Source: Desulfobacterales bacterium
GTDB taxonomy: Bacteria; Desulfobacterota; Desulfobacteria; Desulfobacterales; UBA5616
Reading direction: 5' to 3'
DNA length: 64,000 nucleotides
Assembly: GCA_046483495.1 (NCBI GenBank)
Contig: JAWODC010000009.1
Span: 1-64,000, forward strand
This document shows, one piece after another, positions 157 through 62,792 of this stretch; position 1 is the first letter of the stretch; each line of letters begins with the position of its first letter. The notes under the pieces are model-generated. The model worked only from the letters and a program-made list of their open reading frames with translations, had not been told where the DNA came from and did no database searches. Made by a program: the position numbers and the translations under genes.

Positions 157-248
157 GTGAACAGTGAACAGTGAACAGTGAACGGTGAACAGTGTGAAAA
201 AACGGGTTATGGGCTATAGCCCATAACCCATAACCCTTAACCCGTTTT
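157..248. repeat. Composite intergenic repeat: (GTGAAC[A/G])x5, then inverted GGGTTAT/ATAACCC arms
   Basis: GTGAACA-type units at 157-191. Perfect 26-bp palindrome GGGTTATGGGCTA|TAGCCCATAACCC at 204-229. AAAACGGGTTA (199-209) is complementary to TAACCCGTTTT (238-248). Confidence 0.95.
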
Positions 249-263
249 CCCCGGGGAGCCAAC

Positions 264-2954
264 GTGAAAAACCCGGAAATAACCGAAAAAATCACCCTCA
301 TCACGACCCACATCAACGCGGATTTCGACGCTGCGGCATCCCTGCTGGCTGCGCAGAAACTGTACCCGGGGGCAGTGGTGATCTTCCCGGGCTCCCAGGA
401 AAAAAACATACGCAATTTCTTCATCGACTCCATGGGATACCTGTTCAACCGGGGCGATATCGATGACATCGACATGAACCGGATCGACCGGCTGGTCCTG
501 GTGGACACCCGTCAGCCCGGCCGAATAGGAGAAGTGGCATCCCTGCTGGACAGGTCGGATATCGAAATACATATTTACGATCACCACCCGCATATGGAAA
601 ATGACATCAAGGGCGACCTGGATGTCTACCGGCCCACGGGCGCGACGGTGACCATTCTGACCGATATTATCAGGGAAAAAGGCATCGATATATCCGCGGA
701 CGAGGCGACGGTCATGTGTCTCGGGCTGTACGAGGACACGGGCTCATTCACCTTTTCCTCGACGACGGAGCAGGACTTTTTGGCGGCGGCGCATCTCGTG
801 GCCAAGGGAGCCGACCTGAACGTGGTGTCGGACATGATTTCACGGGATTTCAGCCATGAGCAGATCAACATATTGAATGACATGATCCAATCCGCCGCCC
901 GCTACATTATCAACGGCATCGAATTGATGGTGACCACGATCACCTCCGACACGTATATCCCCGATTTCGCGTTTCTCGTGCACAAGATGGTCAAGATGGA
1001 AAACATCGATGCTCTTTTCGCCGTCGCCCAGATGGGGAACAAGATCTACCTGGTCGCCCGAAGCCGAACGCCGGATGTCGATGTGCTTGAGATTCTCAGC
1101 GAGTTCGGCGGCGGGGGGCACGCCTATGCTTCGGCGGCCTCGGTTAAGAATCAGACCCTGGCTCAAACGGAGAACCGGCTGTTGGACATGCTGTACAAAA
1201 AAGTTTCCCCAAAGCGGCAGGCGAAAGACCTCATGTCCTCCCCCCCGATTACGGTCGACGCCCGGATCTCCTGCAGAGAGGCGGCGGATATTCTAACCCG
1301 CTACAACATCAATGCGCTGATCGTCTTGAAGTCGGAAGACGGGAAAAAGGCGCCTGCCGGCTACATCACCCGGCAGGTTATCGAAAAGGCCCTCTTTCAC
1401 GGTTTGAAGGAAGTGCCTGTGCAGGACTACATGTCCAGTGAATTGGCCACCGTGGGGCCTTCGGCGGGGCTTGCCGAGATTCAGGAGAAGATCATCGAAA
1501 ACAAGCAGCGCATTCTTCCGGTGATCGACCGAAACGACATACTGGGGGTTATCACCCGCACCGACCTGTTGAATATCCTGGTCCGGCAGACCCGGAAAGA
1601 AGCTTCCGGACGCCTCAAGGACCCGTACCGGGAATCCGTGAGCGCACGCAAGCGAAATATCCTTAAATTCATGAAGGAAAGACTGCCGGACCGCATCATC
1701 CAGGTGCTGAAAAGCATTGGTGAAACGGCAAAGGAAAACGGCATGAGCGCCTATGTCGTCGGCGGATTTGTCCGGGACCTGTTTCTTTACCGGAAAAATG
1801 AGGATATCGACATCGTCATCGAAGGCGACGGCATCCTGTTTTCGAGGAAATACGGCAAAATTTACGGGGCAAGGGTCCACGCGCATGAAAAGTTCGGCAC
1901 CGCCGTTATCGTATTCAATGACGGCTTCAAGATCGATGTGGCTTCCGCCCGAATGGAGTACTACCAGTTTCCGGCGGCATTGCCCACCGTTGAAATGGGC
2001 TCCATCAAACTCGATTTATTCAGGCGCGATTTCACGATCAATACGCTGGCCATTCGGTTGGACCCCGGACAATTCGGCATGCTCATCGATTTCTTTTCCG
2101 CTCATCGGGATATCAAGGACAAGGTGATCCGCGTTCTGCACAATTTGAGCTTCGTTGAAGACCCCACGCGGGTTTTTCGGGCCATCCGGTTCGAGCAGCG
2201 GTTCGGATTCACCATCGGTAAGCTGACGGCGGGACTGATCGAAAATGCCGTAAAAATGGATTTCTTCAAACAATTGAGCGGCAGGCGGGTTTTCACGGAG
2301 ATCAAACTGATTCTCCAGGAAGAAAATCCTGTCCCGGCGCTGGTTCGGCTGAACGATTACGACCTGTTCAACTTTATTCACCCGGCCATTACACCGGACA
2401 AGGAAACGTTCGAGAAGCTGGATTCCGCCAAAAAGGTGCTGTCATGGTTTGATTTGCTTTTTCTCGAAGAATCATATATGAAGTGGGCCGTTTATTTTTT
2501 GGTTCTCTTGCGGGAATGCGATAAACAAACGACGGAGGCCATATGCGAACGGCTCGAGCTGTCGCCGAAAAACCGGACCTTTTTCGTAAAGGAGCGGCTT
2601 GAAGCCGATGCCTGCCTGGGCTGGTTTCAGCGGCAGTCCGATGTGGAGAACAGTGAGATTTACAAAATGCTGTCGGGTTTTCGGACCGAGCACACCCTGT
2701 ACATGATGGCGCTGGCGGAGAAAGAATCGATAAAGCGGTCGATTTCCCACTACTTTACCCATCTGCGGTTTATCAGGCCGCTGATCAAAGGCGAGGACTT
2801 AATGCGTTTGGGGTATAAACCGGGGCCGATTTACAGGGAGATCCTCACCGCTATTCTCAACGAGAAGTTGAATGGGCGGCTTAAGACGAAGGTCGAGGAA
2901 TTGTCTTTCGCCGCTCGGGTTGGGAAGGCGTTGGTTGAAGATGGTGAAGCGTAA
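264..2954 (+). CDS. tRNA nucleotidyltransferase (CCA- or A-adding) with N-terminal DHH/DHHA1 and CBS domains
   Basis: DHH motifs THINADFD, YDHH and GGGGH; CBS pair; class II NTase motifs VGGFVRD, DIDI, RRDFTIN and EDPTR. GTG start with GGGAG RBS. Confidence 0.9.
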   Translation: MKNPEITEKITLITTHINADFDAAASLLAAQKLYPGAVVIFPGSQEKNIRNFFIDSMGYLFNRGDIDDIDMNRIDRLVLVDTRQPGRIGEVASLLDRSDIEIHIYDHHPHMENDIKGDLDVYRPTGATVTILTDIIREKGIDISADEATVMCLGLYEDTGSFTFSSTTEQDFLAAAHLVAKGADLNVVSDMISRDFSHEQINILNDMIQSAARYIINGIELMVTTITSDTYIPDFAFLVHKMVKMENIDALFAVAQMGNKIYLVARSRTPDVDVLEILSEFGGGGHAYASAASVKNQTLAQTENRLLDMLYKKVSPKRQAKDLMSSPPITVDARISCREAADILTRYNINALIVLKSEDGKKAPAGYITRQVIEKALFHGLKEVPVQDYMSSELATVGPSAGLAEIQEKIIENKQRILPVIDRNDILGVITRTDLLNILVRQTRKEASGRLKDPYRESVSARKRNILKFMKERLPDRIIQVLKSIGETAKENGMSAYVVGGFVRDLFLYRKNEDIDIVIEGDGILFSRKYGKIYGARVHAHEKFGTAVIVFNDGFKIDVASARMEYYQFPAALPTVEMGSIKLDLFRRDFTINTLAIRLDPGQFGMLIDFFSAHRDIKDKVIRVLHNLSFVEDPTRVFRAIRFEQRFGFTIGKLTAGLIENAVKMDFFKQLSGRRVFTEIKLILQEENPVPALVRLNDYDLFNFIHPAITPDKETFEKLDSAKKVLSWFDLLFLEESYMKWAVYFLVLLRECDKQTTEAICERLELSPKNRTFFVKERLEADACLGWFQRQSDVENSEIYKMLSGFRTEHTLYMMALAEKESIKRSISHYFTHLRFIRPLIKGEDLMRLGYKPGPIYREILTAILNEKLNGRLKTKVEELSFAARVGKALVEDGEA

Positions 2955-2988
2955 AAAACAGGTTATGGGGGTTTAACGCTCAGGGATC

Positions 2989-3165
2989 AATTCAAAATTC
3001 AACATTCAACATTCAAAGCGGGGCGGCGTATCGGATAGGCGGATCATTGCTCCTGAACAGTACGATGATCCGAGGATGATTGTAAAAACCACGAAGAGCA
3101 CGAAGGACACGAAGATTTTTTAAAAACATTTTTTTTTCTTCGTGCTCTTCGTGCTTCGTGGTGAA
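2989..3165 (+). repeat. Element A copy 1: TTCAA(A/C)A heptamers, conserved core and CACGAAG/CTTCGTG hairpin
   Basis: Collinear with the reverse complement of 20477-20664. Core GCGGGGCGGCGTATCGGATAGGCGGATCATTGCTCCT; inverted ACCACGAAG...CTTCGTGGT at 3088-3162. Confidence 0.9.
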
Positions 3166-3219
3166 GTAAAAATATAACCTAATCCGGACCGTTCACTGTT
3201 CGAATTCACGGAGTAATCG

Positions 3220-4203: not shown

Positions 4204-4211
4204 AAAAAAAC

Positions 4212-4280
4212 GGGTTATGGGTTATAGGTCATAGGTCATAGGTCATAGGTTATGGGTCACAGGTTATGGGTTATGGGTGA
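4212..4280. repeat. About 10 tandem G-rich heptamers (RGGTYAY)
   Basis: gggttat gggttat aggtcat x3 aggttat gggtcac aggttat gggttat gggtga, starting 8 bp after the trpS stop. Confidence 0.95.
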
Positions 4281-4460
4281 GGATCGGTTCTGATTTAAAA
4301 TAAACAGTCATGAAATTAAACCAGCCGTGAGCGAAGCGAACGGCACTTTTGTTGACTTGTTGAAAATTAAACCTCTACGATTAGTGGATGCGCGGCGCAG
4401 CAACTCCCCTTCACCCCTGGAGGGGGAAGGCCGGGATGGGGGGGAATAAAGTCCCGATCC
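4281..4460 (+). mobile_element. MITE-like element B, internally deleted copy
   Basis: Ends GGATCGG...CCGATCC. Contains CCGTGAGCGAAGCGAACGG and the CCTTCACCCCTGGAGGGGGAAGGCCGGGATGGGG motif shared with 39416-39728 and 45817-45966. No transposase, so mobility is inferred. Confidence 0.65.
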
Positions 4461-4502
4461 GCCGACGATTTGCAATTTTGACAGGAGAATCAGGAGTACA
4501 GC

Positions 4503-4952
4503 GTGGAAACACCGATAGACATCACCCGGATCATGGCCTATTTGCCTCACCGGTATCCCTTTCTGCTGGTCGATCGTATAACTGAAATCGTCCCGGGCGA
4601 AAAGGTCGTTGCCCTGAAGAATGTCACTATCAATGAGCCGTTCTTCCAGGGCCATTTTCCGGGGGTTCCGGTGATGCCGGGGGTGCTGATCGTCGAGGCC
4701 ATGTGCCAGGCGGGTGCGGTCCTGGCCTATGCCGGCAACCCGCAGGAGGACCCCGGCTCCCACATCATCTATTTGACGGGACTGGACAAGGTTCGGTTTA
4801 GAAAACCGGTGGTTCCGGGTGATCAGCTGGTCATGGAAGTGGTTCAGGTAAAGCAGCGGGCCAAGGTTATCAAAATGTCGGGAACGGCGTATGTGAACCG
4901 GGAGCGTGTGGCGGAAGCGGATCTGATGGCTACGGTCGGGGTCGAAGAATAA
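4503..4952 (+). CDS. fabZ: 3-hydroxyacyl-ACP dehydratase
   Basis: [11 protein letters not shown] and [18 protein letters not shown] motifs; GTG start with AGGAG RBS. Confidence 0.97.
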
Positions 4953-4962
4953 TACATCCGGG

Positions 4963-5201
4963 AAGCTGAAGGCTGGAAGCACGAAATCCGAAAATGGAAA
5001 TTCGAAACAAACATTCAAAATTCAAAATTCAAAATTCAAAATTCAAAATGGGGCTTCATATCGATATCGGCATAGTTGCTCCCATACAACACGATGAACG
5101 AGGGTCATTTTAAAAACCACGCGAATTTACAATGTTTCGCAAATGCCAAAAATGATGAATAAAAAAGGAACGGATCACCCTTCACGATTTACGATTCACG
5201 A
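4963..5201 (+). repeat. Element A copy 2, with GCTGAAG units, (TTCAAAA)x5 and a TTYACGA x3 tail
   Basis: TTCAAAA x5 at 5014-5048; diverged core to about 5121; ttcacga tttacga ttcacga at 5181-5201, just before the lpxA RBS. Confidence 0.9.
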
Positions 5202-5218
5202 TAATCAGGAGTCGACGA

Positions 5219-5989: not shown

Positions 5990-5997
5990 AATAACGG

Positions 5998-6191
5998 GTG
6001 AACGGTGAACAGTGACGCTTCTTGGGCTGAAGGTCTTGAACAAAGGAGAAAACACGAAATTCGAAGCACTAAACAAATTCGAAATTCAAAATTCAAAATT
6101 CAAAACGGGGCGCCGTATCGGAATAGGCGGATAACTGCTCCTAAATAACCCATAACCTATAACCCATAACCCATAGCCCATAGCCCATAGC
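5998..6191 (+). repeat. GTGAAC units, element A copy 3 (6051-6146) and (ATARCCY)x7
   Basis: GTGAACG GTGAACA after the lpxA stop; TTCAAAA x3 plus core CGGGGCGCCGTATCGGAATAGGCGG; C-rich heptamers at 6145-6191 before the lpxI start. Confidence 0.9.
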
Positions 6192-6198
6192 ATTTTTT

Positions 6199-7011
6199 AT
6201 GAAACCCATAGGCATCATAGCGGGGAACGGCCGGTTACCCAAACTTTTTGCGAAAAAGGCCAAATCGAACGGCTTTTCGGTGCATGTCGCGGCGATCAAA
6301 GGCGAGGCCGATCCCGAAATCGAAATGCAGGCCGACTCGACGGCCTGGCTGGCGCTCGGCCGGTTCGAGAAAATGGTTGCCTATTTCAAGGCGCACCGGG
6401 TCGAAAACGCCGTCATGCTGGGGGGTGTGGACAAGACGAAGATTTTTTCACGCGTGGAGCCGGATGCCAGGACGATTTCCATTTTGGCCGATATGGGCCA
6501 CACGCATGACGATGCCCTGTTGAGAGCCTTTGCGGATGCATTAGCCGCGGATGGGATCGAGGTTCTGCCGTCCACACTGCTTCTGCCGGAGCTGCTCGCC
6601 GAGAAAGGGTGCTGGACCGTGCGCGAACCGACAGCGGGAGAATACGCCGACATCGAGATCGGCTTTCGGGCCGCCAAGAAAATCGGCGAACTGGACATCG
6701 GCCAGAGCGTAGTGGTCGCCGGCGGGTCCGTGTTGGCGGTCGAGGCTGTGGACGGCACCGATGCCACCATTTTAAGGGGCGGGAAACTGGCTGACGGCCC
6801 CTGTGTTGTCGTGAAAGTCAGCAAGCCCGGCCAGGACTTGCGCTTCGATGTGCCCGCGGTGGGTTGCGAAACGATTCGGGTCATGGCACGGGCAGGCGCC
6901 TCCGTACTGGCCGTCGAAGCCGGTCGGGCGCTGGTGTTCGACAAAAAGGAAATGGTCGGCCTGGCCGATGCCGCCGGCATTGCCGTCGTGGCGGTTACGG
7001 GAGGATCATGA
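6199..7011 (+). CDS. lpxI: UDP-2,3-diacylglucosamine diphosphatase
   Basis: IIAGNG.LP, LDIGQ, AVEAVDGTD and KPGQDLRFDVP motifs; sits between lpxA and lpxB. Confidence 0.93.
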   Translation: MKPIGIIAGNGRLPKLFAKKAKSNGFSVHVAAIKGEADPEIEMQADSTAWLALGRFEKMVAYFKAHRVENAVMLGGVDKTKIFSRVEPDARTISILADMGHTHDDALLRAFADALAADGIEVLPSTLLLPELLAEKGCWTVREPTAGEYADIEIGFRAAKKIGELDIGQSVVVAGGSVLAVEAVDGTDATILRGGKLADGPCVVVKVSKPGQDLRFDVPAVGCETIRVMARAGASVLAVEAGRALVFDKKEMVGLADAAGIAVVAVTGGS

Positions 7012-12355: not shown

Positions 12356-12357
12356 GA

Positions 12358-12444
12358 GTGGTTAAGTGGTTAGGTGGTTAGGTCAAAAGCAGTGAACCAT
12401 GAAGAGTGAACAGTTTGAAAAAACGGGTAATGGGTGATGGGTGA
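12358..12444. repeat. GTGGTTAG octamer, GTGAAC and GGGT(A/G)AT module
   Basis: Matches the reverse complement of 22665-22795, including the TCAAAAGCAGTGAACC linker. Confidence 0.9.
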
Positions 12445-12647
12445 GGATCGGTTCTGATTTAAGAAAAGCATTCGGGATCGAAATCGAAATCGGTATCGGT
12501 ATCGGTATCGAAATTCAAAAAAGAAAAAAACCGATCCCGATCCCGATTTCGATTTCGATGAGAAGCGAGCGTAGAACGTAAAATGTACGGCGAAGCCGCT
12601 TAATTTTGACCAAATAACAAACCGTGAGCGAAGCGAACGGCAACTTT
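12445..12647 (+). mobile_element. MITE-like element B, left part (ATCGGT/ATCCCG hexamer hairpin)
   Basis: Near-identical to 39416-39617 over about 200 bp; followed by C-rich heptamers at 12655-12703. Confidence 0.7.
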
Positions 12648-12709
12648 CTTTAATCCGTAACCCATAACCTATAGCCTATTACCCATAGCCTATAGCCCAT
12701 AGCTTTTCA

Positions 12710-17590: not shown

Positions 17591-18535
17591 ATGTCGAAAT
17601 ATACGGAAATCGATCTTACGAAGGTTCGCACCTACCCCGCGCTGGAGCGGAAATCGAAGGTGGACACCGCCCGGGAAGCCCAACCGCTATATCCGGGCAT
17701 GACCGTGAAGGCTTTCCTGGAGGCGCTCCCCGGGATTTTGAAGGCCGATGATTTCAAAAGCGTCGTACGGGCCGTGGCGGACGCACGCCGTCTCGAGAAG
17801 CCGGTAATCGTCATGCTCGGGGGACATGTCATAAAGACCGGTTGCAGCCCGGTCCTGGTCGATCTGGCAAAACGCGGCCTCGTCACCCATGTGGCGTCAA
17901 ACGGGTCGGCCGCGATTCACGATAGCGAGCTGGCGCTTTTCGGCCGCACCTCGGAGGATGTGGATGTCCAGCTTGAAACCGGTGATTTCGGCATGGCATC
18001 GGACCTGGCCGATTTTATCAACAACGGGGTGAAAACGGGCGCCGAACGCCGGGAAGGGTTCGGCGAGGCCATTGGACGAAAAATCGTCGAAAGCGGCGCC
18101 CCTTACGCAAGCCGGGCCCTCATCGCCGCCTGCTGGGAACTGAATATTCCGTATACGATCCACGTGGGAGTCGGGACGGATATCGTTCACCAGCACCCGA
18201 GCGCCGACGGGGCGGCGATCGGAGAGGCCTCCCTTCGGGATTTCCGCATCATGGCCGCGGCCGTATCCCGCCTGGGCGGCGGCGGTGTGGTTTTGAACCT
18301 CGGCAGTGCGGTGATCCTTCCCGAGGTGTTTCTCAAGTGCCTTGCCGTGGCCAGAAACACCGGACACGACGTCCGCAACTTCACCACCGCGAATTTCGAC
18401 ATGCTCCAGCACTACCGTCCCGGTGAAAACGTGGTCCGCCGGCCGGTGCTGCCCGGGGGCAGGGGGTATGCGATCACCGGCCACCATGAGATCATGATTC
18501 CCCTTTTGGCCGCCGCTATCCTGGAATACCTTTGA
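17591..18535 (+). CDS. Conserved hypothetical protein, possibly deoxyhypusine-synthase-like fold
   Basis: Clean 314-aa ORF co-oriented after gmhB, with motifs MLGGHVIK, NGSAAIHD, GTDIVHQHP, GSAVILPEVFLK and GHHEIMIPLL. The fold assignment is inference. Confidence 0.7.
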   Translation: MSKYTEIDLTKVRTYPALERKSKVDTAREAQPLYPGMTVKAFLEALPGILKADDFKSVVRAVADARRLEKPVIVMLGGHVIKTGCSPVLVDLAKRGLVTHVASNGSAAIHDSELALFGRTSEDVDVQLETGDFGMASDLADFINNGVKTGAERREGFGEAIGRKIVESGAPYASRALIAACWELNIPYTIHVGVGTDIVHQHPSADGAAIGEASLRDFRIMAAAVSRLGGGGVVLNLGSAVILPEVFLKCLAVARNTGHDVRNFTTANFDMLQHYRPGENVVRRPVLPGGRGYAITGHHEIMIPLLAAAILEYL

Positions 18536-18537
18536 TT

Positions 18538-18601
18538 GTTGGGATCGTTAGGATCGTTTCGAGCGTTTAGATCGTTAAGAACGCTCACAACGATCCCAAC
18601 G
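18538..18601. repeat. Nonamer (GGGATCGTT/AACGATCCC) hairpin between convergent genes
   Basis: GTTGGGATCGTT...AACGATCCCAAC inverted arms. Confidence 0.85.
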
Positions 18602-18604
18602 CCC

Positions 18605-19598: not shown

Positions 19599-20345
19599 TC
19601 AGATTCTTTTTTCCAAAAAAACCGAAAGAAGCGTTTTAGCGATGACCTCATACCCGTATCGGTTCAAGTACCGAACCGGCGGTGAAGCGAGGACGTCATT
19701 GATCGTATCGCAGTCAAGAGATTCCATTACTACAATCCGTGGGGTATATTTCTCCCAGTTATTCGATTTCAGCACCTCGAAATCCATTCCTTCCGCATCG
19801 ATCGTCATGAAATCGATCATCCGGTTTATTTCAAGATAACGGTCAAGGATATTTGAAAGGGGCAAGATGGGAACCGTTATCGATCCGATCATGTTGGATA
19901 TTCCATTTATTTTTCGTTCTTCTGCGACCGCTTTATTACACGTGTTGAGGGCCGGCTCCTCGAACATGAAGTAGGTCAATTCGTCTGCCTTATCGGCTAC
20001 GCCGACTTCGAGGTTGATGTCGCGGGGACGATGCCGGTTGAACAGGTTTATCGTATTGGGAAGCGGGTCGATGTTGATGCCGTGCCACCCGCGGTTGTAG
20101 AAAATCGCGGTGTTGGAAAACCGAAACGGATGATGGGCCCCGACATCGACGTAAAATCCGTTGCGTTGTTTTTCAAAAATCCGCCTCAGAATACGGTCCT
20201 CACCTTCCTGCGCAAAGGACGCCACCGGTTTTTTTAAATTCAGCCGTCGGCGGGCGGTTTTGCGCCATGTTTTAACAGGCATGCTCTTTGAGCAGATAAA
20301 GAGAAAAAATCGAAACAAACGAATCTCCATGGAATACGATGACAA
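19599..20345 (-). CDS. FkbM family methyltransferase
   Basis: Q.GED, YVDVGAHHP...SNT, GW.GINIDP and IDAEG. The start may be at 20330. Confidence 0.88.
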   Translation of the reverse strand: MSSYSMEIRLFRFFLFICSKSMPVKTWRKTARRRLNLKKPVASFAQEGEDRILRRIFEKQRNGFYVDVGAHHPFRFSNTAIFYNRGWHGINIDPLPNTINLFNRHRPRDINLEVGVADKADELTYFMFEEPALNTCNKAVAEERKINGISNMIGSITVPILPLSNILDRYLEINRMIDFMTIDAEGMDFEVLKSNNWEKYTPRIVVMESLDCDTINDVLASPPVRYLNRYGYEVIAKTLLSVFLEKRI

Positions 20346-20411
20346 TATTCGAGTGGGAAGATCGGGGATGATTTCCTAATAGCAACAAAAATTGGAAAAT
20401 GCAATAGGCTG

Positions 20412-20664
20412 GTGAGTCGTGAATCGTGAATTGTGATCAGTACTATTTTATTCTTTAGCATTTCTTACAAGTTCTTACCACGAAGCTATCGAAGAGGACA
20501 AAGAAAAAAATAAAAAAAGTTTTAAAAAAATCTTCGTGTCCTTCGTTCTCTTCGTGGTTTTTAAAATAATTTTAGGACGATGGTACTGTTTAGGAGCAAT
20601 TGTCCGCCTATTCGATACGGCGCCCTGCTTTGAATTTTGAATTTTGAATTTCGAATTTGTTTCG
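20412..20664 (-). repeat. (GTGAATC)x3 plus element A copy 4 (20477-20664)
   Basis: Reverse complement is collinear with 2989-3165. Confidence 0.9.
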
Positions 20665-20738
20665 GCCCGCCCTGGCGCGACCCCGGTTTTCAGAAAAAAT
20701 AAACATATAATTTCAGCCCCGAATGCCCTCGCCCAATG

Positions 20739-21434: not shown

Positions 21435-21445
21435 GTAAATAAGTA

Positions 21446-21655
21446 AATTCGAAACTCGAAGCACGAAATATGAAACAAATTCAAAATTCGAAATTCAAAA
21501 TTCGAAACAAGTAAGAGGATACTATCCTTTTTTTTAAGTCTCACCACGAAGCTTCGTGTTTTTTTTGAATCTAACTTTAAGAATCGTACAATTTTGTTTA
21601 GCTTTGAATTTCGAAATTCGTGCTTTCTCCCTGGGTTTTTTAGTTCACCACGAAC
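21446..21655. repeat. TTC(A/G)AAA inverted-arm element with CACGAAG remnants
   Basis: GAAGCACGAAA..TTCAAAATTCGAAA left arm and TTTGAATTTCGAAATTCGTGCTT right arm; CACCACGAA at about 21542 and 21646. Confidence 0.8.
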
Positions 21656-21659
21656 CCCC

Positions 21660-22664
21660 TCATCTCAACAGCCGTTCCCCCGCCCGAATGACCTCCTCCA
21701 CCGAAACTCCCTCGATGCAGGCCATCGTGCCCGTCGGGCATGTACGGCCGCCATGCCGGCCGCAAGGTTTGCAGTCCAGGCCGGTTTTTTCAACGACGAT
21801 ACTGCTGTTTTTCCAGGGATAATACCCCAGCGCCGGGGTGGTGGCACAGAAAACCGCAACGACAGGCACGTGGAGCGCACAGGCGATGTGCATGGACATG
21901 CTGTCATTGCAGATCACCAGCCGGGCGGTATTCAGAACGGCCATCGCCTCGTCGATTCGGGTTTCGCCGGCCATGTTTATCGCCCCCGTTTCCGATGCGA
22001 TCGTTGCCGAAACTTCCCGGTCTTCCGGTCCTCCCACAAGCAGTACGTCATACCCGCTTCGGATGAAGTGCCGGGCCGTATCGCGGAAGCCTTGCCGGTG
22101 CCATCGTTTGGTGGCCCAGACGCTGCCCGGCACCAGGACGACAGGATTGGGTGATGCATCCAGGATGTTCCGTACATGGCTGCCGATCTCCGTTCTGTCG
22201 GGCGGAAACAACCGCAGGTCGGTGTTCTGATAGGGAAGGGGGATCTCCTTTGCTATCAGCGAGAGGTTGCGCAGCACATCGTGGCTCTTCAGGTCACGGG
22301 GGCGAACCTCCGTGTACAGCCGGTGCAGCCTTGCATCCGAAAACCCGATGCGAACCGGGATACATGCCAGCTTCAATAGCATAGCGGTGCGATAGGATCG
22401 GTGTAATGCGTAGGCACGGTCGAAACCCATCGACCTCAAACGAACCGCCATTTTACAGAGGCCGAAAATGCCGGCTTCGGTTCGGCGCTTGTCGAAGGTG
22501 ATAATGCCGGCCGGCAGGGGATCGCGGCGAACCAGCTCCGCTGACTGCGGGGTCGTCATCAGCCACAGTTCGGCATCCGGAAATGCGCGGTGCAACCCTG
22601 AAATCACCGGTGTCGAGAGAATGGTGTCGCCTAAGAAGCTTGTTTGTACGAGGAGTATTTTCAT
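21660..22664 (-). CDS. GT9 heptosyltransferase (WaaF-like)
   Basis: LGDTILSTP, PGSVWATKRW, NDS...HIA and C.PC motifs. Confidence 0.88.
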   Translation of the reverse strand: MKILLVQTSFLGDTILSTPVISGLHRAFPDAELWLMTTPQSAELVRRDPLPAGIITFDKRRTEAGIFGLCKMAVRLRSMGFDRAYALHRSYRTAMLLKLACIPVRIGFSDARLHRLYTEVRPRDLKSHDVLRNLSLIAKEIPLPYQNTDLRLFPPDRTEIGSHVRNILDASPNPVVLVPGSVWATKRWHRQGFRDTARHFIRSGYDVLLVGGPEDREVSATIASETGAINMAGETRIDEAMAVLNTARLVICNDSMSMHIACALHVPVVAVFCATTPALGYYPWKNSSIVVEKTGLDCKPCGRHGGRTCPTGTMACIEGVSVEEVIRAGERLLR

Positions 22665-22795
22665 TACCCATAACCCATAACATCACCCGATTTTTCACAC
22701 TGTTCACTCTTCACGGTTCACTGCTTTTGAACTAACCACCTAATCACCTAACCACCTAACCACCTAACCACCTAATCACCTAATCACTGTTCACT
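22665..22795. repeat. (CTAAYCAC)x7, TTCAC units and CCCATAA units
   Basis: Octamers at 22732-22787; homologous to 12358-12444. Confidence 0.95.
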
Positions 22796-23835: not shown

Positions 23836-23930
23836 GTGTCGAATCGCAAAGCTGGTTCGGCTTTATTTGGCGTTCCTGGATGCCCTATCTATCTTCAACG
23901 GCGCTGTTATGCAAGTGAAAATGTTTAGGA

Positions 23931-24036
23931 GGCTGAAAGCTAAAAGCTGAAGGGAGGTAAGCACGAAATTCGAAATTCGAAACAAACATTCAAAATTCAA
24001 AATTCAAAATTCAAAACGGGGCAACGTATAGGCGGC
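23931..24036 (+). repeat. GCTGAAA units plus element A copy 5 (truncated core)
   Basis: AAGCACGAAATTCGAAATTCGAAACAAACA(TTCAAAA)x4 CGGGGC, as at 4977 and 6051. Confidence 0.88.
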
Positions 24037-24165
24037 GGGAGACAATTTTGAAGCCGTCGATACCGGCGGAATGCAGAGACTATCGTTTGGGCGGCGGGAA
24101 TTCAAATCGGTTGAAGTTTCAATGAATCTGATATACAAACGATGCCGCATCGATGAGCTGTTAAG

Positions 24166-24300
24166 CGTTGGGATCGTTATGATTGTTTAGAGCGTTTAGA
24201 TGGTTTAGAGCGTTAGAACGTTCACAACGATCCCAACGATCCCAACGGCCCTAACGATCTTAACGATCCTAACGATCAAAACGACCCAAACGCAAACGAC
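24166..24300. repeat. Nonamer hairpin element
   Basis: GGGATCGTT/TAGAGCGTT left arm and AACGATCC(C/T) right arm. Confidence 0.92.
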
Positions 24301-24340
24301 AAAAGCACACGCAAGGCGAGAAAGCAGCCTGGAGGCGCAT

Positions 24341-25513: not shown

Positions 25514-25517
25514 ATTG

Positions 25518-25748
25518 TGAACAGTGAACAGTGAACGGTGAAACAAGGTGATAGGCAATGGGAGATAGGAGCTGAATGCTCAAAGCTCATATCTCAAAAC
25601 TGCAGCGGATCGGGTCTTAATCCACAGCATGCCCCCTTCCCCACCGGAGGGGGAAGGCCGGGATGGGGGGGAAATAAAATCGGTTCTCATCCGCACCCAT
25701 ACCCCCTAACCGATTACCCCGGACCTGTTTTCCCACGATTCACGACCC
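25518..25748. repeat. Composite: GTGAACA units, collapsed element B (25607-25680), CCCATA and ATTCACG units
   Basis: GGATCGGGTCTTAATCC is fused almost directly to the CCCCTTCCCC..GGGGAAGGCCGGGATGGGG motif; lies between convergent genes. Confidence 0.85.
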
Positions 25749-30816: not shown

Positions 30817-30830
30817 AGGGTTCCTCGTAT

Positions 30831-30908
30831 TGAATCGTAAATCGTGAAAAACAGGTTCTCCTCCACACCCATTACCCATAACCCATCACCTATACCTATA
30901 ACCCGCCC
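30831..30908. repeat. ATCGT(G/A)A and CCCAT(A/C)A heptamer units
   Basis: In transcription direction: G-rich heptamers at the upstream stop, and TTCACGATTTACGATTCA before the GT2 start (same string as 5181-5198). Confidence 0.85.
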
Positions 30909-31285: not shown

Positions 31286-31367
31286 GGTGTAGGCATCCGT
31301 GTTGAATGGGTTTCTTTGAGTCGAAGGATTTTTTATCGGAGGGATGGGGAAATGTAAAGTTTTTTAT

Positions 31368-31458
31368 GGACTATGGGCTATGGGTTATGGGCTATGGGTT
31401 ATAGGTTATAGGCTACGGGCTATGGGTGATGGGTTAGGGGTTAGGGGTTATGGGTGGG
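31368..31458. repeat. 13 tandem G-rich heptamers, including GGGTTAG GGGTTAG
   Basis: Strict 7-bp periodicity from ggactat to gggtggg. Confidence 0.97.
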
Positions 31459-31508
31459 GTTGAGAGCATTCATACGGGGCTTTGATGATGAAGCGTGAAT
31501 GGGCATGA

Positions 31509-31562
31509 TTGGGATCGTTGGAACGCTCTAAGCGCTCTAAACGCTCAAAACGATCCTAACGC
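31509..31562. repeat. Short nonamer hairpin element
   Basis: TTGGGATCGTT...AACGCTCTA units...AACGATCCTAA. Confidence 0.85.
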
Positions 31563-31643
31563 TAAAAAAGGTTTACTTTTAACGCCATTTTAATTAGACA
31601 AAAAAAATTTCACCTCTCAACCATTCCGGCCGGTGGAGATACG

Positions 31644-32258
31644 ATGATCAGGTTAAAGGACGAACCGCTGCTGATAAAGGGGGGGAATCGGCTCTGTTAC
31701 ATCCATCCGGAGGACGACACGAAAATTCTGAAGGTGCTGAGGCCGGAAAAGACCGCCGAGGCAAAGCGCAGCAAGGCCCCGCTTTATCAAAAATTCCGTC
31801 CGCTTTCGTCATTCGATGACAATCGGTGGGAGTTGCGGGAATTTTCACGATTGGCCAAAAAGGGGGGCCATATCCGGCGGCATTTTCCCGGATGCTTCGG
31901 TGAGGTGCAAACGGACATGGGATGTGCCGTTTGCCAGGAGTTGATTCGATCGGATGACGGCCGTATCGCCCCAAGCCTGCAGGCGTATCTGCAGGATCAG
32001 GGCCCGACACCGAACATCTTAGAAGCCCTGGCGGAGTTTTTTTCGTTTTTGGAGGATAACCGCATCATCGTGCGGGACCTTCGCAGCGGCAATCTGGTTG
32101 TTAAAACAAGTGAATCCCTGCGCATCTACATGATCGACGGCATCGGCAATTCGGATTTCATTCCGATTGCAAATGTCAGCAAAACGTGGGCCGGAATCAA
32201 AATTCGGCGCAATATTGCGGCCTTCCGGCGTAAGTTGGGATCGTTTAGATCGTTATGA
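31644..32258 (+). CDS. YrbL family kinase-like protein
   Basis: G.NR.CY.HP, K..KV, N..E, G.V.TD.G, RDL...N and IDG.G. Confidence 0.8.
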   Translation: MIRLKDEPLLIKGGNRLCYIHPEDDTKILKVLRPEKTAEAKRSKAPLYQKFRPLSSFDDNRWELREFSRLAKKGGHIRRHFPGCFGEVQTDMGCAVCQELIRSDDGRIAPSLQAYLQDQGPTPNILEALAEFFSFLEDNRIIVRDLRSGNLVVKTSESLRIYMIDGIGNSDFIPIANVSKTWAGIKIRRNIAAFRRKLGSFRSL

Positions 32259-32350
32259 TCGTTAGGATCGTTGGGATCGTTGGGATCGTTGGAATCGTTG
32301 GGATCGTTTTAAAACGCTCCAAACGCTCTAAACGATCCCAACGCTCAAAA
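32234..32350. repeat. Nonamer array (NNNATCGTT)x8 plus AACGCTC/AACGATCCC arm
   Basis: Units at 32237-32308; the yrbL-like stop TGA lies within unit 3. Confidence 0.95.
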
Positions 32351-32363
32351 CGGATTGGAAGTC

Positions 32364-38808: not shown

Positions 38809-39348
38809 ATGAGCATCCCATCCCCCCCCGTGCCTGCCAAGCTGGTAATCGGCATTCTGCTGCAAGAGCAGTCCCCGGCGGCAGCGGTCATTGCCGCTAT
38901 GGAGGCTGAATTCGGCTCCCTGGATATCGTCAGCCGGTGGTTTGCCTTTGATTACACCCGATATTACGATGAGGAAATGGGGAGCGGGCTTAAGAGACGA
39001 ATGATGTCGTTCGAGCGGTTAATCCAACAGGACGATTTGCCGGACATCAAGCGGTTTACGAATGATATTGAAAATCGTTATGCGATAAGCGGTGCACGGC
39101 GGGTCAATATCGATCCCGGATACCTGGTGCCGGAGCGCTTCGTTCTGGCGACCGGAAAGAATTTTACGCACCGGGTATATTTGGCAAAGGGCATTTATGC
39201 GGATTTGACCTTGATTTTTTCAAAAGGCCGATTTCAGACGCTGCCCTGGACCTACCCGGATTATGCGGACGGGGATATTCAGCGGTTCTTGATGAAGGTT
39301 CGGGAAAAGTATAAGGTGGATGTCAAAAGGGCGGGTTATGGGGTATAG
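38809..39348 (+). CDS. DUF4416 family protein
   Basis: T.YY..EMG, R.VNIDPGY, LAT.K.F.HR.Y and WTYPDY. Confidence 0.85.
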   Translation: MSIPSPPVPAKLVIGILLQEQSPAAAVIAAMEAEFGSLDIVSRWFAFDYTRYYDEEMGSGLKRRMMSFERLIQQDDLPDIKRFTNDIENRYAISGARRVNIDPGYLVPERFVLATGKNFTHRVYLAKGIYADLTLIFSKGRFQTLPWTYPDYADGDIQRFLMKVREKYKVDVKRAGYGV

Positions 39349-39415
39349 GCGATAGGCTATGGGTGATGGGTGAGGGGTTATGGGTGATGGGTGATGGGCG
39401 ATGGACTATGGGTGA
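39333..39415. repeat. About 12 tandem G-rich heptamers overlapping the DUF4416 stop
   Basis: gggttat ggggtat aggcgat aggctat gggtgat and further units. Confidence 0.95.
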
Positions 39416-39728
39416 GGATCGGTTCTGATTTAAGAAAAGCATTCGGTGTCGGGATCGAAATCGGTATCGGTATCGGTATCGAAATTTGAAAAAGAAAAAA
39501 ACCGATCCCGATCCCGATTTCGATTTTGATGAGAAGAGAGTGTAGAAGGTAAAATCTACGGAGAAGCCGGTTATTTTTGACCAAGCAACAAACCGTGAGC
39601 AAAGCGAACGGCAATTTTATTTACTTGTTGAAAATTAAGTTATTACGATCAATGGACTGGCGGCGCAACAACTCTCCTTCACCCCTGGAGGGGGAAGGCC
39701 GGGATGGGGGGGAATAAAGACCCGATCC
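39416..39728 (+). mobile_element. MITE-like element B, complete copy (313 bp)
   Basis: Termini GGATCGGTTCT...AGACCCGATCC; contains all sub-modules; flanked by GGGTGAT arrays on the left and CCCATAA arrays on the right. Confidence 0.7.
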
Positions 39729-39770
39729 ACACCCATAACCCATAACCCAAAACCCAAAACAAGGAAAACC

Positions 39771-41805: not shown

Positions 41806-42555
41806 ATGGTCGGCAAAGAAGACATACTATTCGGCATTCATCCGGTGTCCGAAGTTCTCCGGGCGGGCAGACGGATGGTCTACGAAATATATGTCGCATC
41901 CGAGAAAGCGTCGAAGCGGATCGATCGCATGACTGCATCCGCCGCAGAAATGAAAAAGCCGGTGACGCGGGTGAGTACGGGCAAACTGACGGCGCTGACC
42001 GGCACTCCGGGCCACCAGGGTGCAGCGGCGCGAGTAGGAGCTTATCCCTATGCGGATCTCGATGCCGTGATCGAGTCCGATGCAAGAACTGTCCCACTGG
42101 TGCTTTTGCTGGATCATATTATGGATCCCCAAAACCTGGGTGCGATCATCCGGACGGCGCTCTGCGCCGGCGTCAACGGCATCATCATCCCCAAGGACCG
42201 GTCCGCCGGCGCCACGCCGGCCGTCAGCAAGGCCTCGGCAGGGGCCCTGGAGCATATCCGGCTGTGCCGAATGGTCAACATGGTAAACACCATGAAAACT
42301 CTGAAGGCGGCGGGTTTTTGGATGATGGGGTTGGACCGGGAAGGAAAGGATCAGATATACGCCGTCGGACTGACCGGCCGGACCGGAATCGTCATCGGCG
42401 GTGAAGACACGGGAATCCGCCCGTTGGTGAAGAAACACTGCGACGTGCTGATGGCGATTCCTCAGCAGACGGCATTCAATTCCTTGAATGCCTCCGCCGC
42501 GGCCGCCGTTGTCCTTTATGAGGCTTATCGGCAGCGTATCACTCATAACCCCTAA
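41806..42555 (+). CDS. rlmB: 23S rRNA (G2251-2'-O)-methyltransferase
   Basis: HQG, DPQNLGAI.R, KASAGA, GGE..G and SLNAS.A. Confidence 0.93.
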   Translation: MVGKEDILFGIHPVSEVLRAGRRMVYEIYVASEKASKRIDRMTASAAEMKKPVTRVSTGKLTALTGTPGHQGAAARVGAYPYADLDAVIESDARTVPLVLLLDHIMDPQNLGAIIRTALCAGVNGIIIPKDRSAGATPAVSKASAGALEHIRLCRMVNMVNTMKTLKAAGFWMMGLDREGKDQIYAVGLTGRTGIVIGGEDTGIRPLVKKHCDVLMAIPQQTAFNSLNASAAAAVVLYEAYRQRITHNP

Positions 42556-42572
42556 CCCCTAACTCATAACCT
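42543..42572. repeat. Four C-rich heptamers spanning the rlmB stop
   Basis: tcataac ccctaac ccctaac tcataac. Confidence 0.85.
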
Positions 42573-44634: not shown

Positions 44635-45437
44635 AAAAAACGGCAACCATGATGATTCGATATTCAGACACCGGCGTTCCCTATTACCAATTTTCTCATT
44701 TCAGCCAAATCGATTTTCTCCGCCACGGCATTTTCACCCGCCACGGCGGGGTCAGCCCCGTCCCGTTCGACAGTCTCAACATCGCCCGAAGCGTCGGCGA
44801 TAAACCTGACCATGTCAACCGAAATCGGCGCATCATTTCTGACGCCATGGGCGTTTCGGAAATGACGTTCATTCACCAGGTTCACGGAACGGATGTGCGG
44901 GTGCTTGCCCACGAGGGATTCGCCGGATCGGGTTTGCAAGCCGGTACGACAACGGGCGATGCCATGGTCACGGATACACCCGGCAAAAACCTGGTGATTC
45001 AGGTGGCCGACTGCCAGGCGGTAATGATGGTGGACCCGGTTTTGCGGGTGATTGCCAACGTCCATGCCGGCTGGCGGGGCGTTGTTCTCGATATCATCGG
45101 GAAAACCGTTGCCGTGATGAAAGATCGCTTCGGGTGCCGGCCCGATCGAATGCTGGCCGGAACAGGCCCTTCACTGGGGCCTTGCTGCGCGGAGTTCATC
45201 CATTATCGACGGGAGATTCCAAAAACGTTTTGGCGCTACATGAATCATGAGGTATACGTCGATTTATGGGCGATCAGCCGCGACCAGATCATCAGCGCCG
45301 GGGTGCCGGAAGATAACATCGAATCGAGCGGCATATGCACCCGGTGCAGGTCGGATGATTTTTTTTCGTACCGCAAGCATAAGACCACCGGTAGGTTTGC
45401 GGCTGTTATCGGGATAGGGGATGATGGTAATGGGTGA
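44631..45437 (+). CDS. pgeF: Peptidoglycan editing factor / YfiH family
   Basis: TR.GGVS, QVHG, ADC, HAGWRG, GPS.GPCC and FFSYR. Start at the GTGA overlap. Confidence 0.92.
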   Translation: MKKTATMMIRYSDTGVPYYQFSHFSQIDFLRHGIFTRHGGVSPVPFDSLNIARSVGDKPDHVNRNRRIISDAMGVSEMTFIHQVHGTDVRVLAHEGFAGSGLQAGTTTGDAMVTDTPGKNLVIQVADCQAVMMVDPVLRVIANVHAGWRGVVLDIIGKTVAVMKDRFGCRPDRMLAGTGPSLGPCCAEFIHYRREIPKTFWRYMNHEVYVDLWAISRDQIISAGVPEDNIESSGICTRCRSDDFFSYRKHKTTGRFAAVIGIGDDGNG

Positions 45438-45542
45438 GGGGTGATGGATCAGGGTTGATGGGCGAATCGTGAATCGTGCAAGGGGGCGTTTGGATCGCGG
45501 CCCTTAGCTTTAAGCTGAAGGCTCAGAGCTCCAATTCAAAGA

Positions 45543-45966
45543 GGATCGGGTCTTAATCCCCCCCATCCCGGCCTTCCCCCTCCAGTGGGGAAGGGGCCAT
45601 GTAGCGACAGATGACCATTTATCCAATGTACGTTTTTTTATCAGTCCGTTCAGGCGACTGCTTCGCGCCGCTTGTAAATAAGAAGGTGGTTTGTTTAAAC
45701 GATAAATTCACAGGAGGTGATTTATTGTTGTTTAAAAAAACATATTTCAAGATGCTCTGATGAAAAAAACAAATTGAATAGAAAAACACCTTTCACAACC
45801 TTGAGAGATATGACCATGACCAAAAAACAAACCGTGAGCAAAGCGAACGGCACTTTTATTTACTTATTGAAAAATAAGGCATTACGATCAGTGGACTTGC
45901 GGTGCAACATGTCCCCTTCACCCCTGGAGGGGGAAGGCCGGGATGGGGGGGATAAAGATCCGATCC
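45543..45966. mobile_element. 424-bp MITE-like element with about 60-bp terminal inverted repeats (element B family)
   Basis: 45543-45602 is the near-exact reverse complement of 45907-45966. G-rich heptamers lie upstream (about 45411-45480) and CCCATAA arrays downstream (45970-46013). Confidence 0.72.
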
Positions 45967-46029
45967 ACACCCATAACCCATAACCCATAGCCCTAAGTCC
46001 ATAACCCATCACCTTTTTAAGGAAACCAA

Positions 46030-46827: not shown

Positions 46828-46942
46828 GGTTCGTTAGTATCGTTTAGATCGTTCAGATCGTTGAGATCGTTTTGAACGCTCCTAAAGCTCCTAACCATCC
46901 TAACGATCCTAACGATCCAAACGATCTCAACAATCCAAACGA
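46828..46942. repeat. Nonamer hairpin element
   Basis: About five (NNNATCGTT)-type units, then about five (AACGATCCN)-type units, starting at the pyrK stop. Confidence 0.92.
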
Positions 46943-48866: not shown

Positions 48867-48934
48867 GGTTCATCAGGGTCATTGATATTCCTGACCAAGA
48901 CCCAATTTGCTCCAAACCCCTGCTGATTGAAGAA

Positions 48935-48990
48935 ACCGCGAAGAACACGAAGATTTAAGTTTTCTTCGTGCTCTTCGTGTTCGTGGTGAA
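48935..48990. repeat. CACGAAG/CTTCGTG hairpin (element A right module)
   Basis: ACCGCGAAGAACACGAAGA...TCTTCGTGCTCTTCGTGTTCGTGGTGAA, similar to 3088-3165. Confidence 0.85.
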
Positions 48991-62050: not shown

Positions 62051-62095
62051 CCTCCTTATGGCTGTAAATCCCCGGCTGTATGCCGGAGCAAGGAA
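62051..62095 (-). promoter_or_regulatory. Putative S6:S18 ribosomal leader
   Basis: TTCCTTG-CTCCGGC-ATACA-GCCGGGG-ATTTACAG-CCA-T-AAGGAGG: outer stem sequesters the SD, with an inner hairpin and an unpaired CCR. Confidence 0.7.
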
Positions 62096-62143
62096 TAGGG
62101 GCGCCCGCCCCTCGACCACGCTTCATCAACACGAAAATTTATT

Positions 62144-62173
62144 CTTTTAACACCAGATAAAATCGCCTGTCAA
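62144..62173 (-). promoter_or_regulatory. Putative sigma70 promoter of the rpsF operon
   Basis: TTGACA-18 bp-TAAAAG on the minus strand. Confidence 0.4.
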
Positions 62174-62260
62174 GGCACATTTTCGAACGGAAAAACCGGC
62201 GGTCAGCGGAAAAAATGAAACGTCAAACGTCGTGATGATGGCCGTCACCCATAACATGAA

Positions 62261-62545
62261 TCATTCCACGCAGATGATATCTTTATTGGCCTCGTAAGTC
62301 CTCAGGCCGATGCCTTTCACTTTCATGATCTCCTGGGGTTCAGTAAAGGGACCCACGTTTTCCCGGTAGTCGATGATCCGCTGTGCGTATCGCGGACCGA
62401 TACGATTCAGGGTGGTCAATTCCTCCAAGCCGGCTGTATTGATATTGATTTTGACCGCCGTTTCTTCGGATACGGCCGGATACGGAAACAGCATCACAAT
62501 CATCAAAATCGCCAGCAGCGGTGTCATTGAGGCAATTCGTTTCAT
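62261..62545 (-). CDS. comEA: ComEA-like helix-hairpin-helix DNA-binding protein
   Basis: Signal peptide, ININTA..EEL, IG...AQRII.YR...GPF and VKGIG. Confidence 0.88.
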   Translation of the reverse strand: MKRIASMTPLLAILMIVMLFPYPAVSEETAVKININTAGLEELTTLNRIGPRYAQRIIDYRENVGPFTEPQEIMKVKGIGLRTYEANKDIICVE

Positions 62546-62605
62546 TGTAAACCTCCTTTTGTAAGTGGCGGTAAGTTGTTTATGAGTGACAGGCCATTAG
62601 CGGTT

Positions 62606-62633
62606 ATAATAGAATTTATAAAATAAAAGTCAA
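62606..62633 (-). promoter_or_regulatory. Putative sigma70 promoter of comEA
   Basis: TTGACT-16 bp-TATTAT with an AT-rich upstream region. Confidence 0.45.
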
Positions 62634-62721
62634 CTACAAAATACGTAAAAATTACATCAGAAAACGACATATAGTTATAAAAAATATAAAATACAATAGA
62701 TTATAGAAAAAGCAACATACC

Positions 62722-62792
62722 ATCGAAATCGGGATCGGTATCGGTATCGAAATTAAAAAAGAAAAAAACGATCCCGATTTCGATTTCGATGG
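62722..62792. repeat. Isolated hexamer-hairpin module of element B
   Basis: ATCGAAATCGGGATCGGTATCGGTATCGAAATT-A-rich-CGATCCCGATTTCGATTTCGATG, as at 12477-12560 and 39454-39531. Confidence 0.9.

Follow-up and report, generated by a model that had tools for sequence, protein, structure and literature searches.

Intergenic repeat inserts in the window

The window analyzed here is a 64,000-nucleotide stretch of a Desulfobacterales genome (C69:1-64000 of G000; 4.19 Mb, 94 contigs, 96.7% complete) that carries genes for a CCA-adding enzyme (CCA), trpS, lipid A and lipopolysaccharide (LPS) genes, icd, atp genes, uvrA, dnaA, dnaB, and ribosomal protein genes. Its intergenic spacers contain composite inserts whose arms are arrays of short tandem repeats with units of 6-9 bases, belonging to ten nested motif families. 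Each family has a G-form (written '>') and a complementary C-form ('<'), labels that follow the usage of an earlier prediction for this DNA, although 'G-rich' misfits the TTCAAAA family, which shows the same geometry yet has no G. Family B is GTGAACA, the I hairpin is ATCGGT...ACCGAT, and the G-family pair is GGGATCGTT...AACGATCCC; by inspection, GGG runs occur in families A and G only. The window is a hot spot for such inserts, with arrays in 20 of its 39 spacers of at least 40 nt, compared with 129/2281 genome-wide.

Arrays were sought with regular expressions for the ten families, composed after inspection of the window, and spacers were defined from a custom-written gene caller (3563 genes, 85% coding; start positions approximate). 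Intergenic DNA of the genome (631 kb) contained 268 raw matches, compared with 1-7 (mean, 3.3) in the 20 order-3 Markov simulations that served as the null. Merging gave 284 arrays: 239 fell within internal spacers, 24 within spacers at contig edges, and 21 within genes. Array-bearing spacers were also clustered, 75/129 having another within 5 kb (mean, 31, and maximum, 52, in 2000 random draws). The arrays of the window were also recovered with Tandem Repeats Finder (TRF), and a contig of public run X1, which may be the source sample, was identical (0 differences) to positions 2887-3096 across an array. The comparison with public reads covered contigs of 4/13 runs against window positions 1-4990, where runs contributing a small share are no evidence of habitat or expression; none of these contigs bridges 4203-4503. 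Over positions 157-334, the summed contig depth in run X1 reached the thousands, suggesting that many of the organisms sampled there have units of this kind. A search of Rfam gave no match to the window.

These data confirmed the arrays as the original prediction had described them, with G-rich units at or just after stop codons and C-rich units just before start codons. The named motif lay on the named strand at all 24 positions examined (12 stop-side, 11 start-side, and one inside the exception at 22664). The placement held in general, except that the arrays at 32237, 39333, and 45430 begin within the gene end, the start-side unit at 3190 is degenerate, and the one at 42543 is both ahead of a start and at a stop codon. 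Genome-wide, the rule held in 81/91 cases for the G-form within 60 nt of a stop and in 34/39 cases for the C-form within 60 nt of a start, and beyond the window 93/106 arrays near a gene end conformed. The clear exception that had been pointed out at 22664 is a lone left half-element whose G-form runs to the ATG.

Strand-symmetric layout of the arms

The stop/start rule had been taken to suggest an RNA-level or transcription-coupled mechanism. Our analysis indicated a strand-symmetric geometry instead. All 36 same-family, opposite-strand pairs (27 of them outside the window) have the G-form on the left and the C-form on the right. Read on the plus strand, the G-form lay in the left half of the spacer or the C-form in the right half for 184/239 arrays (148/197 outside the window), including 81/101 between plus-strand genes, 45/57 between minus-strand genes, 32/41 in convergent spacers, and 26/40 in divergent spacers (p=0.08). 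The G-first layout was found in 17/17 cases at 10 loci of G059, a second genome of the order, with clear divergent cases too. For the GGGAATC and GTGAACA arrays of public collections, the G-form was closer to the gene on its own 5' side at 53/63 and 42/55 loci with genes on both sides, respectively. Because a G-arm...C-arm pair is its own reverse complement, it generates the stop/start rule in every spacer type and carries no information on transcription.

Two directional accounts of the arms were rejected. In co-directional spacers, G-forms showed no significant bias to the mRNA strand (sense:antisense, 87:71, p=0.23; per spacer, 41:38), and only 34/73 of these spacers folded better on the sense strand. 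Replichore polarity was likewise absent (leading:lagging, 114:95, p=0.21), with strands assigned by local third-position skew as a proxy and 54 arrays left unassigned. This skew was positive in 14/15 bins of C69 and did not switch at dnaA, so the window is not called origin-proximal. An AT-rich spacer precedes dnaA at 51828-52330 with the skew unswitched there, and the origin may lie elsewhere.

A smaller link to transcription persists besides the geometry. Arms lay at a median of 9 nt from stops vs 58 nt from starts, and unpaired arms of all families except I had the G-form on the mRNA in a ratio of 58:34 (p=0.016; 59:42, p=0.11, with family I included). Non-palindromic inner modules were in mRNA sense in 20/25 spacers; this count includes non-independent copies, and the mRNA-sense strand may also be the leading strand. 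Together with the stop-side codon halo described below, this residue is the part of the transcription-polarity claim that stands, whereas as the principal reading of the arms the claim falls to the strand-symmetric layout. Collectively, these repeats are very probably the outer arms of inserts arranged in a strand-symmetric geometry, and seeing the rule in this way removes a misleading clue to the function of heptamer arrays.

Mosaic anatomy and history of the inserts

The inserts are nested mosaics with the typical order F > B > A > M1, I-hairpin, M3, M4, M5, M6 < A (Table 1). Identical junction sequences between modules recur at different sites, and copies of the inner modules share 82-88% mean identity. 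An inner block with the short inverted ends GGATCGG(T/G)TCT is found in both orientations. Matched A arms produce long closing stems in the folds of 12340-12730 (lptF-lptG; z=-5.5) and 39330-39790 (z=-5.4), whereas 24/43 two-armed spacers have no common family between their arms. Spacer ends paired only slightly better with their own partner than with swapped ones (mean rank, 0.41; 9/57 in the top tenth), and specific pairing between the coding end of the upstream gene and the coding start of the downstream gene was rejected (rank, 0.52). At two loci of G059 (L157 and L160), A-family or related arms of up to 189 nt surround a different palindromic element.

Comparison with four relatives (the congener G001, and G003, G004, and G005) suggests that the inserts were likely gained by this lineage at formerly tight gene junctions. 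Orthologous junctions in all four are short and array-free; the fabZ-lpxA gap, for example, measures 0, 6, 15, and 0 nt compared with 266 nt in G000, and the CCA-trpS spacer is far shorter and without arrays in two relatives. Only 6 short A-type matches were found in 164 kb of the relatives' DNA. The composite at 39350-39765 has no match in the congener, and pieces of it occur in 18 other genomes of 60.

Compared with G001 and G003, the G000 assembly carries an inversion with one end in the trpS-fabZ spacer (4204-4502) and the other in the lpxD-scpA spacer (C6:12113-12591, L078), parting lpxD from fabZ and trpS from scpA. Both spacers contain A, M1, M4, and M6, with a longest common identical stretch of at most 41 bases. 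The first 147 bp of the window also occur in C6, after which C69 continues with one arm set and C6 with a different one. This fork is only suggestive of block copying, forks away from modules being common in the assembly.

Table 1. Repeat inserts and examples of codon-shifted gene flanks in the window
Positions	Strand	Feature	Basis
157..243	.	B> (GTGAACA) and A> arms, then A< arm ahead of CCA-adding enzyme start (264)	array/module map
2955..3219	.	CCA-trpS spacer: short A-type arm, E> array, module N1, H hairpin, degenerate C-form arm	array/module map
4204..4502	.	trpS-fabZ spacer: A> arm, modules M1, M4, M5, M6; one inversion breakpoint	array/module map, ortholog comparison
4953..5218	.	fabZ-lpxA spacer (266 nt): D-like and E> arms, module N2, C< arm	array/module map
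5990..6198	.	lpxA-lpxI spacer: B> arm, module K, E>, A< arm; arms unmatched	array/module map
12356..12709	.	lptF-lptG spacer: nested F> B> A> M1, I hairpin, M3, M4, A<	array/module map, folding
18534..18604	.	Empty G-family pair, convergent spacer	TRF + array map
20283..20738	.	C>, H hairpin, N1, E< between minus-strand genes	array/module map
21435..21659	.	E>, H, degenerate E< between kdkA-like and waaF-like genes	array map
22662..22790	-	Lone half-element: B, F, B, A in mRNA order, up to ATG at 22664	array map
23836..24340	.	Divergent spacer: D>, E>, G-family pair	array map
25514..25739	.	Convergent spacer: B>, D-like, M6-type hairpin, C-type arm on minus strand	array map
30817..30904	.	C-type and A< arms between minus-strand genes	array map
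31286..31643	.	Divergent spacer: 13-unit A> array and G-family pair	TRF + array map
32234..32354	.	Empty G-family pair beginning within upstream gene end	TRF + array map
39333..39770	.	Most complete composite: A> M1 I-hairpin M3 M4 M5 M6 A<	module map, folding
42543..42571	.	Lone A< array at rlmB stop, ahead of icd	TRF
45426..46029	.	A>, C>, D-like, M6-, M4 M5 M6+, A<: DUF559-type hairpin pair without gene	module map
46828..46942	.	Empty G-family pair following pyrK-like stop	TRF + array map
48930..48990	.	H hairpin in convergent spacer ahead of uvrA stop	array map
62722..62795	.	Lone I hairpin	TRF + array map
2835..2954	+	G/T codon halo example: last ~120 nt of CCA gene	pooled statistics, not per gene
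before 4203, 4952, 5989, 12355, 45437, 46827		Further G/T codon halo examples	pooled, not per gene
6199..6260	+	C/A codon halo example: first ~60 nt of lpxI	pooled statistics, not per gene
after 5219, 12710, 46030		Further C/A codon halo examples	pooled, not per gene

A derived codon shift in the flanking genes

Genes next to the arms carry a halo of shifted synonymous codons. G+T made up 75% of four-fold sites over the final 30 nt of the 57 genes adjoining arrays, vs 52% in 1614 control ends, and returned to baseline by 120-150 nt; over the first 30 nt of 34 such genes, it fell to 34% vs 47%. Over the last 20 codons (60 nt), the four-fold G+T fraction of the 57 genes was 0.69 vs 0.51, a value reached by 0/20000 gene-level permutations; the start-side value over 60 nt was reached by 64/20000. 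Two-fold sites at stops behaved similarly (T:C, 150:64, and G:A, 110:75, vs 3462:2831 and 2137:3614) and were mirrored at starts. Expressed on the strand reading into the insert, the shift comprises C-to-T, C-to-G, and A-to-G changes that fade by about 120 nt, and its sign flips at the center.

Ortholog comparison showed that the halo is derived rather than ancestral. In the last 20 codons, synonymous switches to G/T vs C/A numbered 53:18 against G001 (15 genes) and 52:14 against G003 (14 genes), compared with 47:58 and 76:85 in control genes (p=1e-4 and 1.5e-5). The first 20 codons gave 15:33 and 13:26, compared with 43:44 and 86:90 in controls (p=0.047 and 0.11). Counts against G004 (8:5, 3 genes) and G005 (14:5, 6 genes) in the last 20 codons were not significant.

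The halo was present in convergent spacers (0.62 vs 0.52, p=0.002) and outside C69 and C6 (0.67), and it accompanied arms of unlike make-up (family B, 0.73; family E, 0.75). Divergent starts showed no significant halo (0.43 vs 0.48, 7 genes). It recurred in G059 (0.62 vs 0.48 at 7 stops; 0.27 vs 0.46 at 4 starts), in genes upstream of the relatives' four-helix-bundle cassettes (0.61 vs 0.49), and at the stops of metagenome GGGAATC arrays (0.61 vs 0.49, 18 genes, p=0.005, with a control other than repeat-free gene ends of those genomes), where starts were not significant. An unrelated second palindromic repeat family of about 150 bp with 114 matches in G000 (e.g., C6:561-715) served as a control and gave 0.54, compared with 0.51 for other inverted repeats and 0.50 for plain ends. 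This halo of derived codon shift around these arms is a new observation; among titles and the beginnings of abstracts in the literature, none ties heptamer arms to four-helix-bundle genes or reports a codon halo, and supplements may hold such data.

Cargo between the arms

The inserts are mostly cargo-less and non-coding; they enclose copied hairpin modules and a DUF559 gene and lie around toxin-antitoxin pairs. Searching array-bearing spacers against 1399 open reading frames (ORFs) of the relatives recovered coding remnants only at the DUF559 gene of C39 and at a small uncalled gene at C86:15554, the rest being translations of repeats. The latter (about 66 aa) lies in an array-bearing spacer and shares 68% identity with an ORF in the vicinity of a G003 four-helix-bundle locus (L040). 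All three DUF559 copies of G000 adjoin an M6 hairpin, and the sole copy with a full open frame (C39:8132-8446) sits between M6 hairpins within A arms. The surrounding locus (L070, C39:7850-9130) shows DUF559 amid tandem hairpin modules together with a duplicated piece of its own 3' end, resembling a REPIN-like cluster, and M6-like hairpins also lie next to DUF559 on C200 of G005. On C38 (L076, 9976-14827), arms and modules lie between a YefM-like antitoxin with its RelE-like partner (named by eye, with no family hit) and two VapBC pairs, among sugar-nucleotide genes. The 3' junction of gmd differs between genomes: it is a short spacer in G001 and G004, contains arms plus a toxin-antitoxin pair in G000, and in G005 (L175, C204) contains a (CGCAGATTA)n arm and, after it, a gene in which a GxxExxY motif was recognized by eye.

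Four-helix-bundle genes (TIGR02436/PF05635) gave 0 matches in G000 at its 96.7% completeness (best tblastn E, 0.07, with 26 proteins of relatives), and none was found in the congener; G000 likewise has no GxxExxY gene. TIGR02436 genes occur in 32/41 genomes searched. The 30 loci examined mostly have short-period repeats on both sides, with G exceeding C upstream in 27/30 and C exceeding G downstream in 22/30, and the genes are co-oriented with their neighbors in 18/21 cases upstream and 19/22 downstream. One such locus (L056) is flanked by family G arms, and 5/29 small ORFs behind GTGAACA arrays match the four-helix-bundle family. In G004, 21 four-helix-bundle matches were found; among the matches listed, these are N-terminal pieces of 27-53 residues, many near contig ends, and may represent a multi-copy or decaying cassette.

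These findings bear out the suggestion that the arrays are scars of oriented elements whose cargo is encoded elsewhere, since four-helix-bundle genes lie between such arms in relatives. Among the arm-enclosed proteins that had been proposed, DUF559 (C39) and GxxExxY-like (G005) genes were found between such arms, four-helix-bundle genes were found in relatives and were absent from G000, and the Y1/RAYT candidate dropped out; the two genes of that type (C18:11181 and C94:36687) have no arrays or modules of these families alongside. A reverse transcriptase was also rejected as the driver, the one group II intron-like enzyme of G000 showing no link to the inserts. On C89, an IS110-family transposase (L079, 336-1733) adjoins a stretch with several array-bearing spacers.

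Origin of the inserts and the codon halo

We tentatively favor a reading in which the junctions are recurrent break-and-patch sites with single-strand mutation, refreshed by copying from other copies. Inserts would have been acquired at once-tight gene junctions, G-form first on both strands, and then cut near the inner hairpins, with the DUF559 nuclease between M6 hairpins or host hairpin nucleases as candidate enzymes. Two-sided resection of the cut would leave single-stranded 3' tails on exactly the strands that read inward. Deamination of resected 3' tails removes C and A from the exposed strand with a sign flip at the center, and could thereby produce the halo and the G-first make-up of the arms. 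Invasion of homologous modules elsewhere by these tails might yield the mosaics, the local clustering, and the inversion, while slippage at the primer end may expand the 6-9-mers. Insertion right behind stop codons, with read-through expression of any cargo, would leave the residual link to transcription. The halo needs many substitutions, and hence long occupancy, yet the contents look young, which fits sites that are refilled. If break-and-patch is true, essential genes next to the inserts (here those for lipid A, tRNA, and LPS) are being altered locally by non-coding DNA, which also seeds rearrangements. As a footprint, the derived, distance-decaying synonymous shift can be quantified, allows mutation to be told from selection, and makes the origin of the repeats testable.

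Several results weigh against break-and-patch. RecBCD resection normally extends far past 120 nt, and DUF559 occurs in only 10/41 genomes, being missing from most arm-bearing ones. Private substitutions in the inner modules are unbiased on the inward strand (C>T plus A>G, 38; G>A plus T>C, 38), although a mutational center, once overwritten, may not retain a bias. The halo is asymmetric (0.73, 0.65, and 0.62 in 40-nt bins from the arm on the stop side vs 0.56, 0.61, and 0.52 on the start side), weaker in convergent (0.62) than in co-directional (0.73) spacers (p=0.006), and slight beside families G (0.54) and C (0.52). The start-side ortholog test was marginal, and metagenome GTGAACA arrays had no significant halo (0.59 vs 0.55).

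Because the inner modules show no mutational bias, selection at the RNA level stays a strong rival, which we regard as possible but less probable than break-and-patch. On this account, inserts leave 100-600 nt untranslated in operons, so that C would be removed and G added around the stop to avoid Rho loading, the next start would be kept A/C-rich and unpaired, and arms and halo would be compensatory. The presence of rho in G000, the peak of the halo at co-directional stops, and arms that hug stops agree with such selection. However, the halo remains at convergent stops, where termination should do no harm, and is independent of arm composition (B, D, and E strong; G weak), contrary to what avoidance of pairing predicts, and the G-first geometry of divergent spacers, clear in G059, is unexplained. 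Transcription-associated mutagenesis would place the cause in polymerase pausing or R-loops at the structured insert, with deamination of the displaced non-template strand and weaker antisense transcription making the start halo. It suits the excess of the stop side over the start side (p of about 4e-4, from counts rebuilt from rounded fractions), the divergent starts, and the sense orientation of the inner modules, but it is unlikely, given that module substitutions have no sense-strand bias (29:30), that the arms are not biased to the mRNA strand, and that the start halo of G059 is as large as its stop halo.

The original prediction had also proposed arms that fold out inserted DNA and bring stop and start together. 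Arms that pair in the mRNA and are cut by RNase III or bound by protein, like 23S rRNA intervening sequences (IVS), would account for the closing stems of the two matched-A-arm spacers, and the available portion of one report places the heptamers of a Coxiella IVS in an RNase III-cut stem (PMC4990558). Nevertheless, the many two-armed spacers without a common arm family speak against folding out as a general mechanism, own-locus pairing barely exceeds swapped pairing, sense and antisense strands fold alike, and relatives run the same operons without inserts. As the main function it is very unlikely, but it is compatible with break-and-patch as a by-product where the arms match. An artefact of assembly or gene calling could be suspected from the metagenome-type assembly, the home-made gene caller, and the 15/188 contig ends near modules. 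It is extremely improbable in view of the X1 contig that is identical across an array, the same geometry in G059, the position of the halo in codons aligned to orthologs, and the short identity (at most 41 bases) common to the two inversion spacers.

A bolder extension, which we consider rather doubtful, is that one cut-and-extend pathway lies behind bacterial heptamer arrays. Small cassette proteins (DUF559-type nuclease, Avd-like four-helix bundle, GxxExxY) would open junctions just behind stops, G/T-rich repeats would be added to each 3' end and then fused head to head, much as telomeres fuse, and about 40 codons of the neighboring housekeeping gene would be recoded per cycle. If this were true, heptamer excess, the stop/start rule, and IVS cassettes would be one process.

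Comparison with known systems

Strand-coordinated mutation clusters arise in single-stranded DNA at resected breaks, and a G+T skew marks the leading strand. The coding flanks of the inserts resemble break-associated clusters in having C>T and A>G on the inward-reading strand, a sign flip at the center, and decay with distance, but the scale is about 120 nt, the shift is tied to a bacterial repeat insert, and the non-coding inner modules are unbiased. The inner block with inverted ends in both orientations may recall a miniature inverted-repeat transposable element (MITE), but length and content vary. Repetitive extragenic palindromic (REP) sequences, bacterial interspersed mosaic elements (BIMEs), and REPINs are small palindromic modules with REP-associated tyrosine transposases (RAYTs); like the inserts, they form mosaics of palindromic modules behind stop codons, some around a small nuclease gene, as M6 is with DUF559. 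The inserts differ from them in their tandem-repeat arms and in that the two Y1/RAYT-like genes lie outside the module map. Lineage-specific intergenic heptamer arrays are also known from cyanobacteria as short tandemly repeated repetitive (STRR) sequences.

The TAACTGA repeats of Beggiatoaceae, likewise lineage-specific intergenic heptamer arrays oriented to start codons, are, in the accessible part of that study, mostly direct repeats ahead of starts (MacGregor 2015, PMC4679880), unlike the paired, nested arms described here. ORF-bearing IVS of 23S rRNA encode S23p (PF05635/TIGR02436), according to the available portion of PMC4990558. IVS and four-helix-bundle cassettes share with our inserts the inverted arms of short tandem units with the purine/G-rich arm first (36/36 pairs here); units of families G and B adjoin such genes elsewhere, and a halo lies upstream there too. 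Differences are that G000 has no such gene or remnant, that its arms are often unmatched, and that the sites in the window are spacers between protein genes, not rRNA.

The closest counterparts of the positional rule are the GGGAATC and GGGGA(C/T)T heptamers of Xanthomonas and Nostoc. In the portion of the report available, their G-rich strand is the coding strand near stops and the non-coding strand near starts in any gene orientation, inverted pairs are common, there is no leading/lagging bias, and the function is given as unknown (Rehm et al. 2015, PMC4692102). The inserts agree with them in their intergenic arrays, the stop/start rule, and the lack of a leading/lagging preference, and differ in having ten nested families instead of one motif per genome, units that by inspection mostly lack quadruplex-capable runs, and lineage-specific positions where those heptamers are conserved between species. 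The arrays and the positional rule are thus already known from other bacteria, whereas the codon halo, the cargo, and the block copying, none of which is reported in that portion of PMC4692102, set the present inserts apart.

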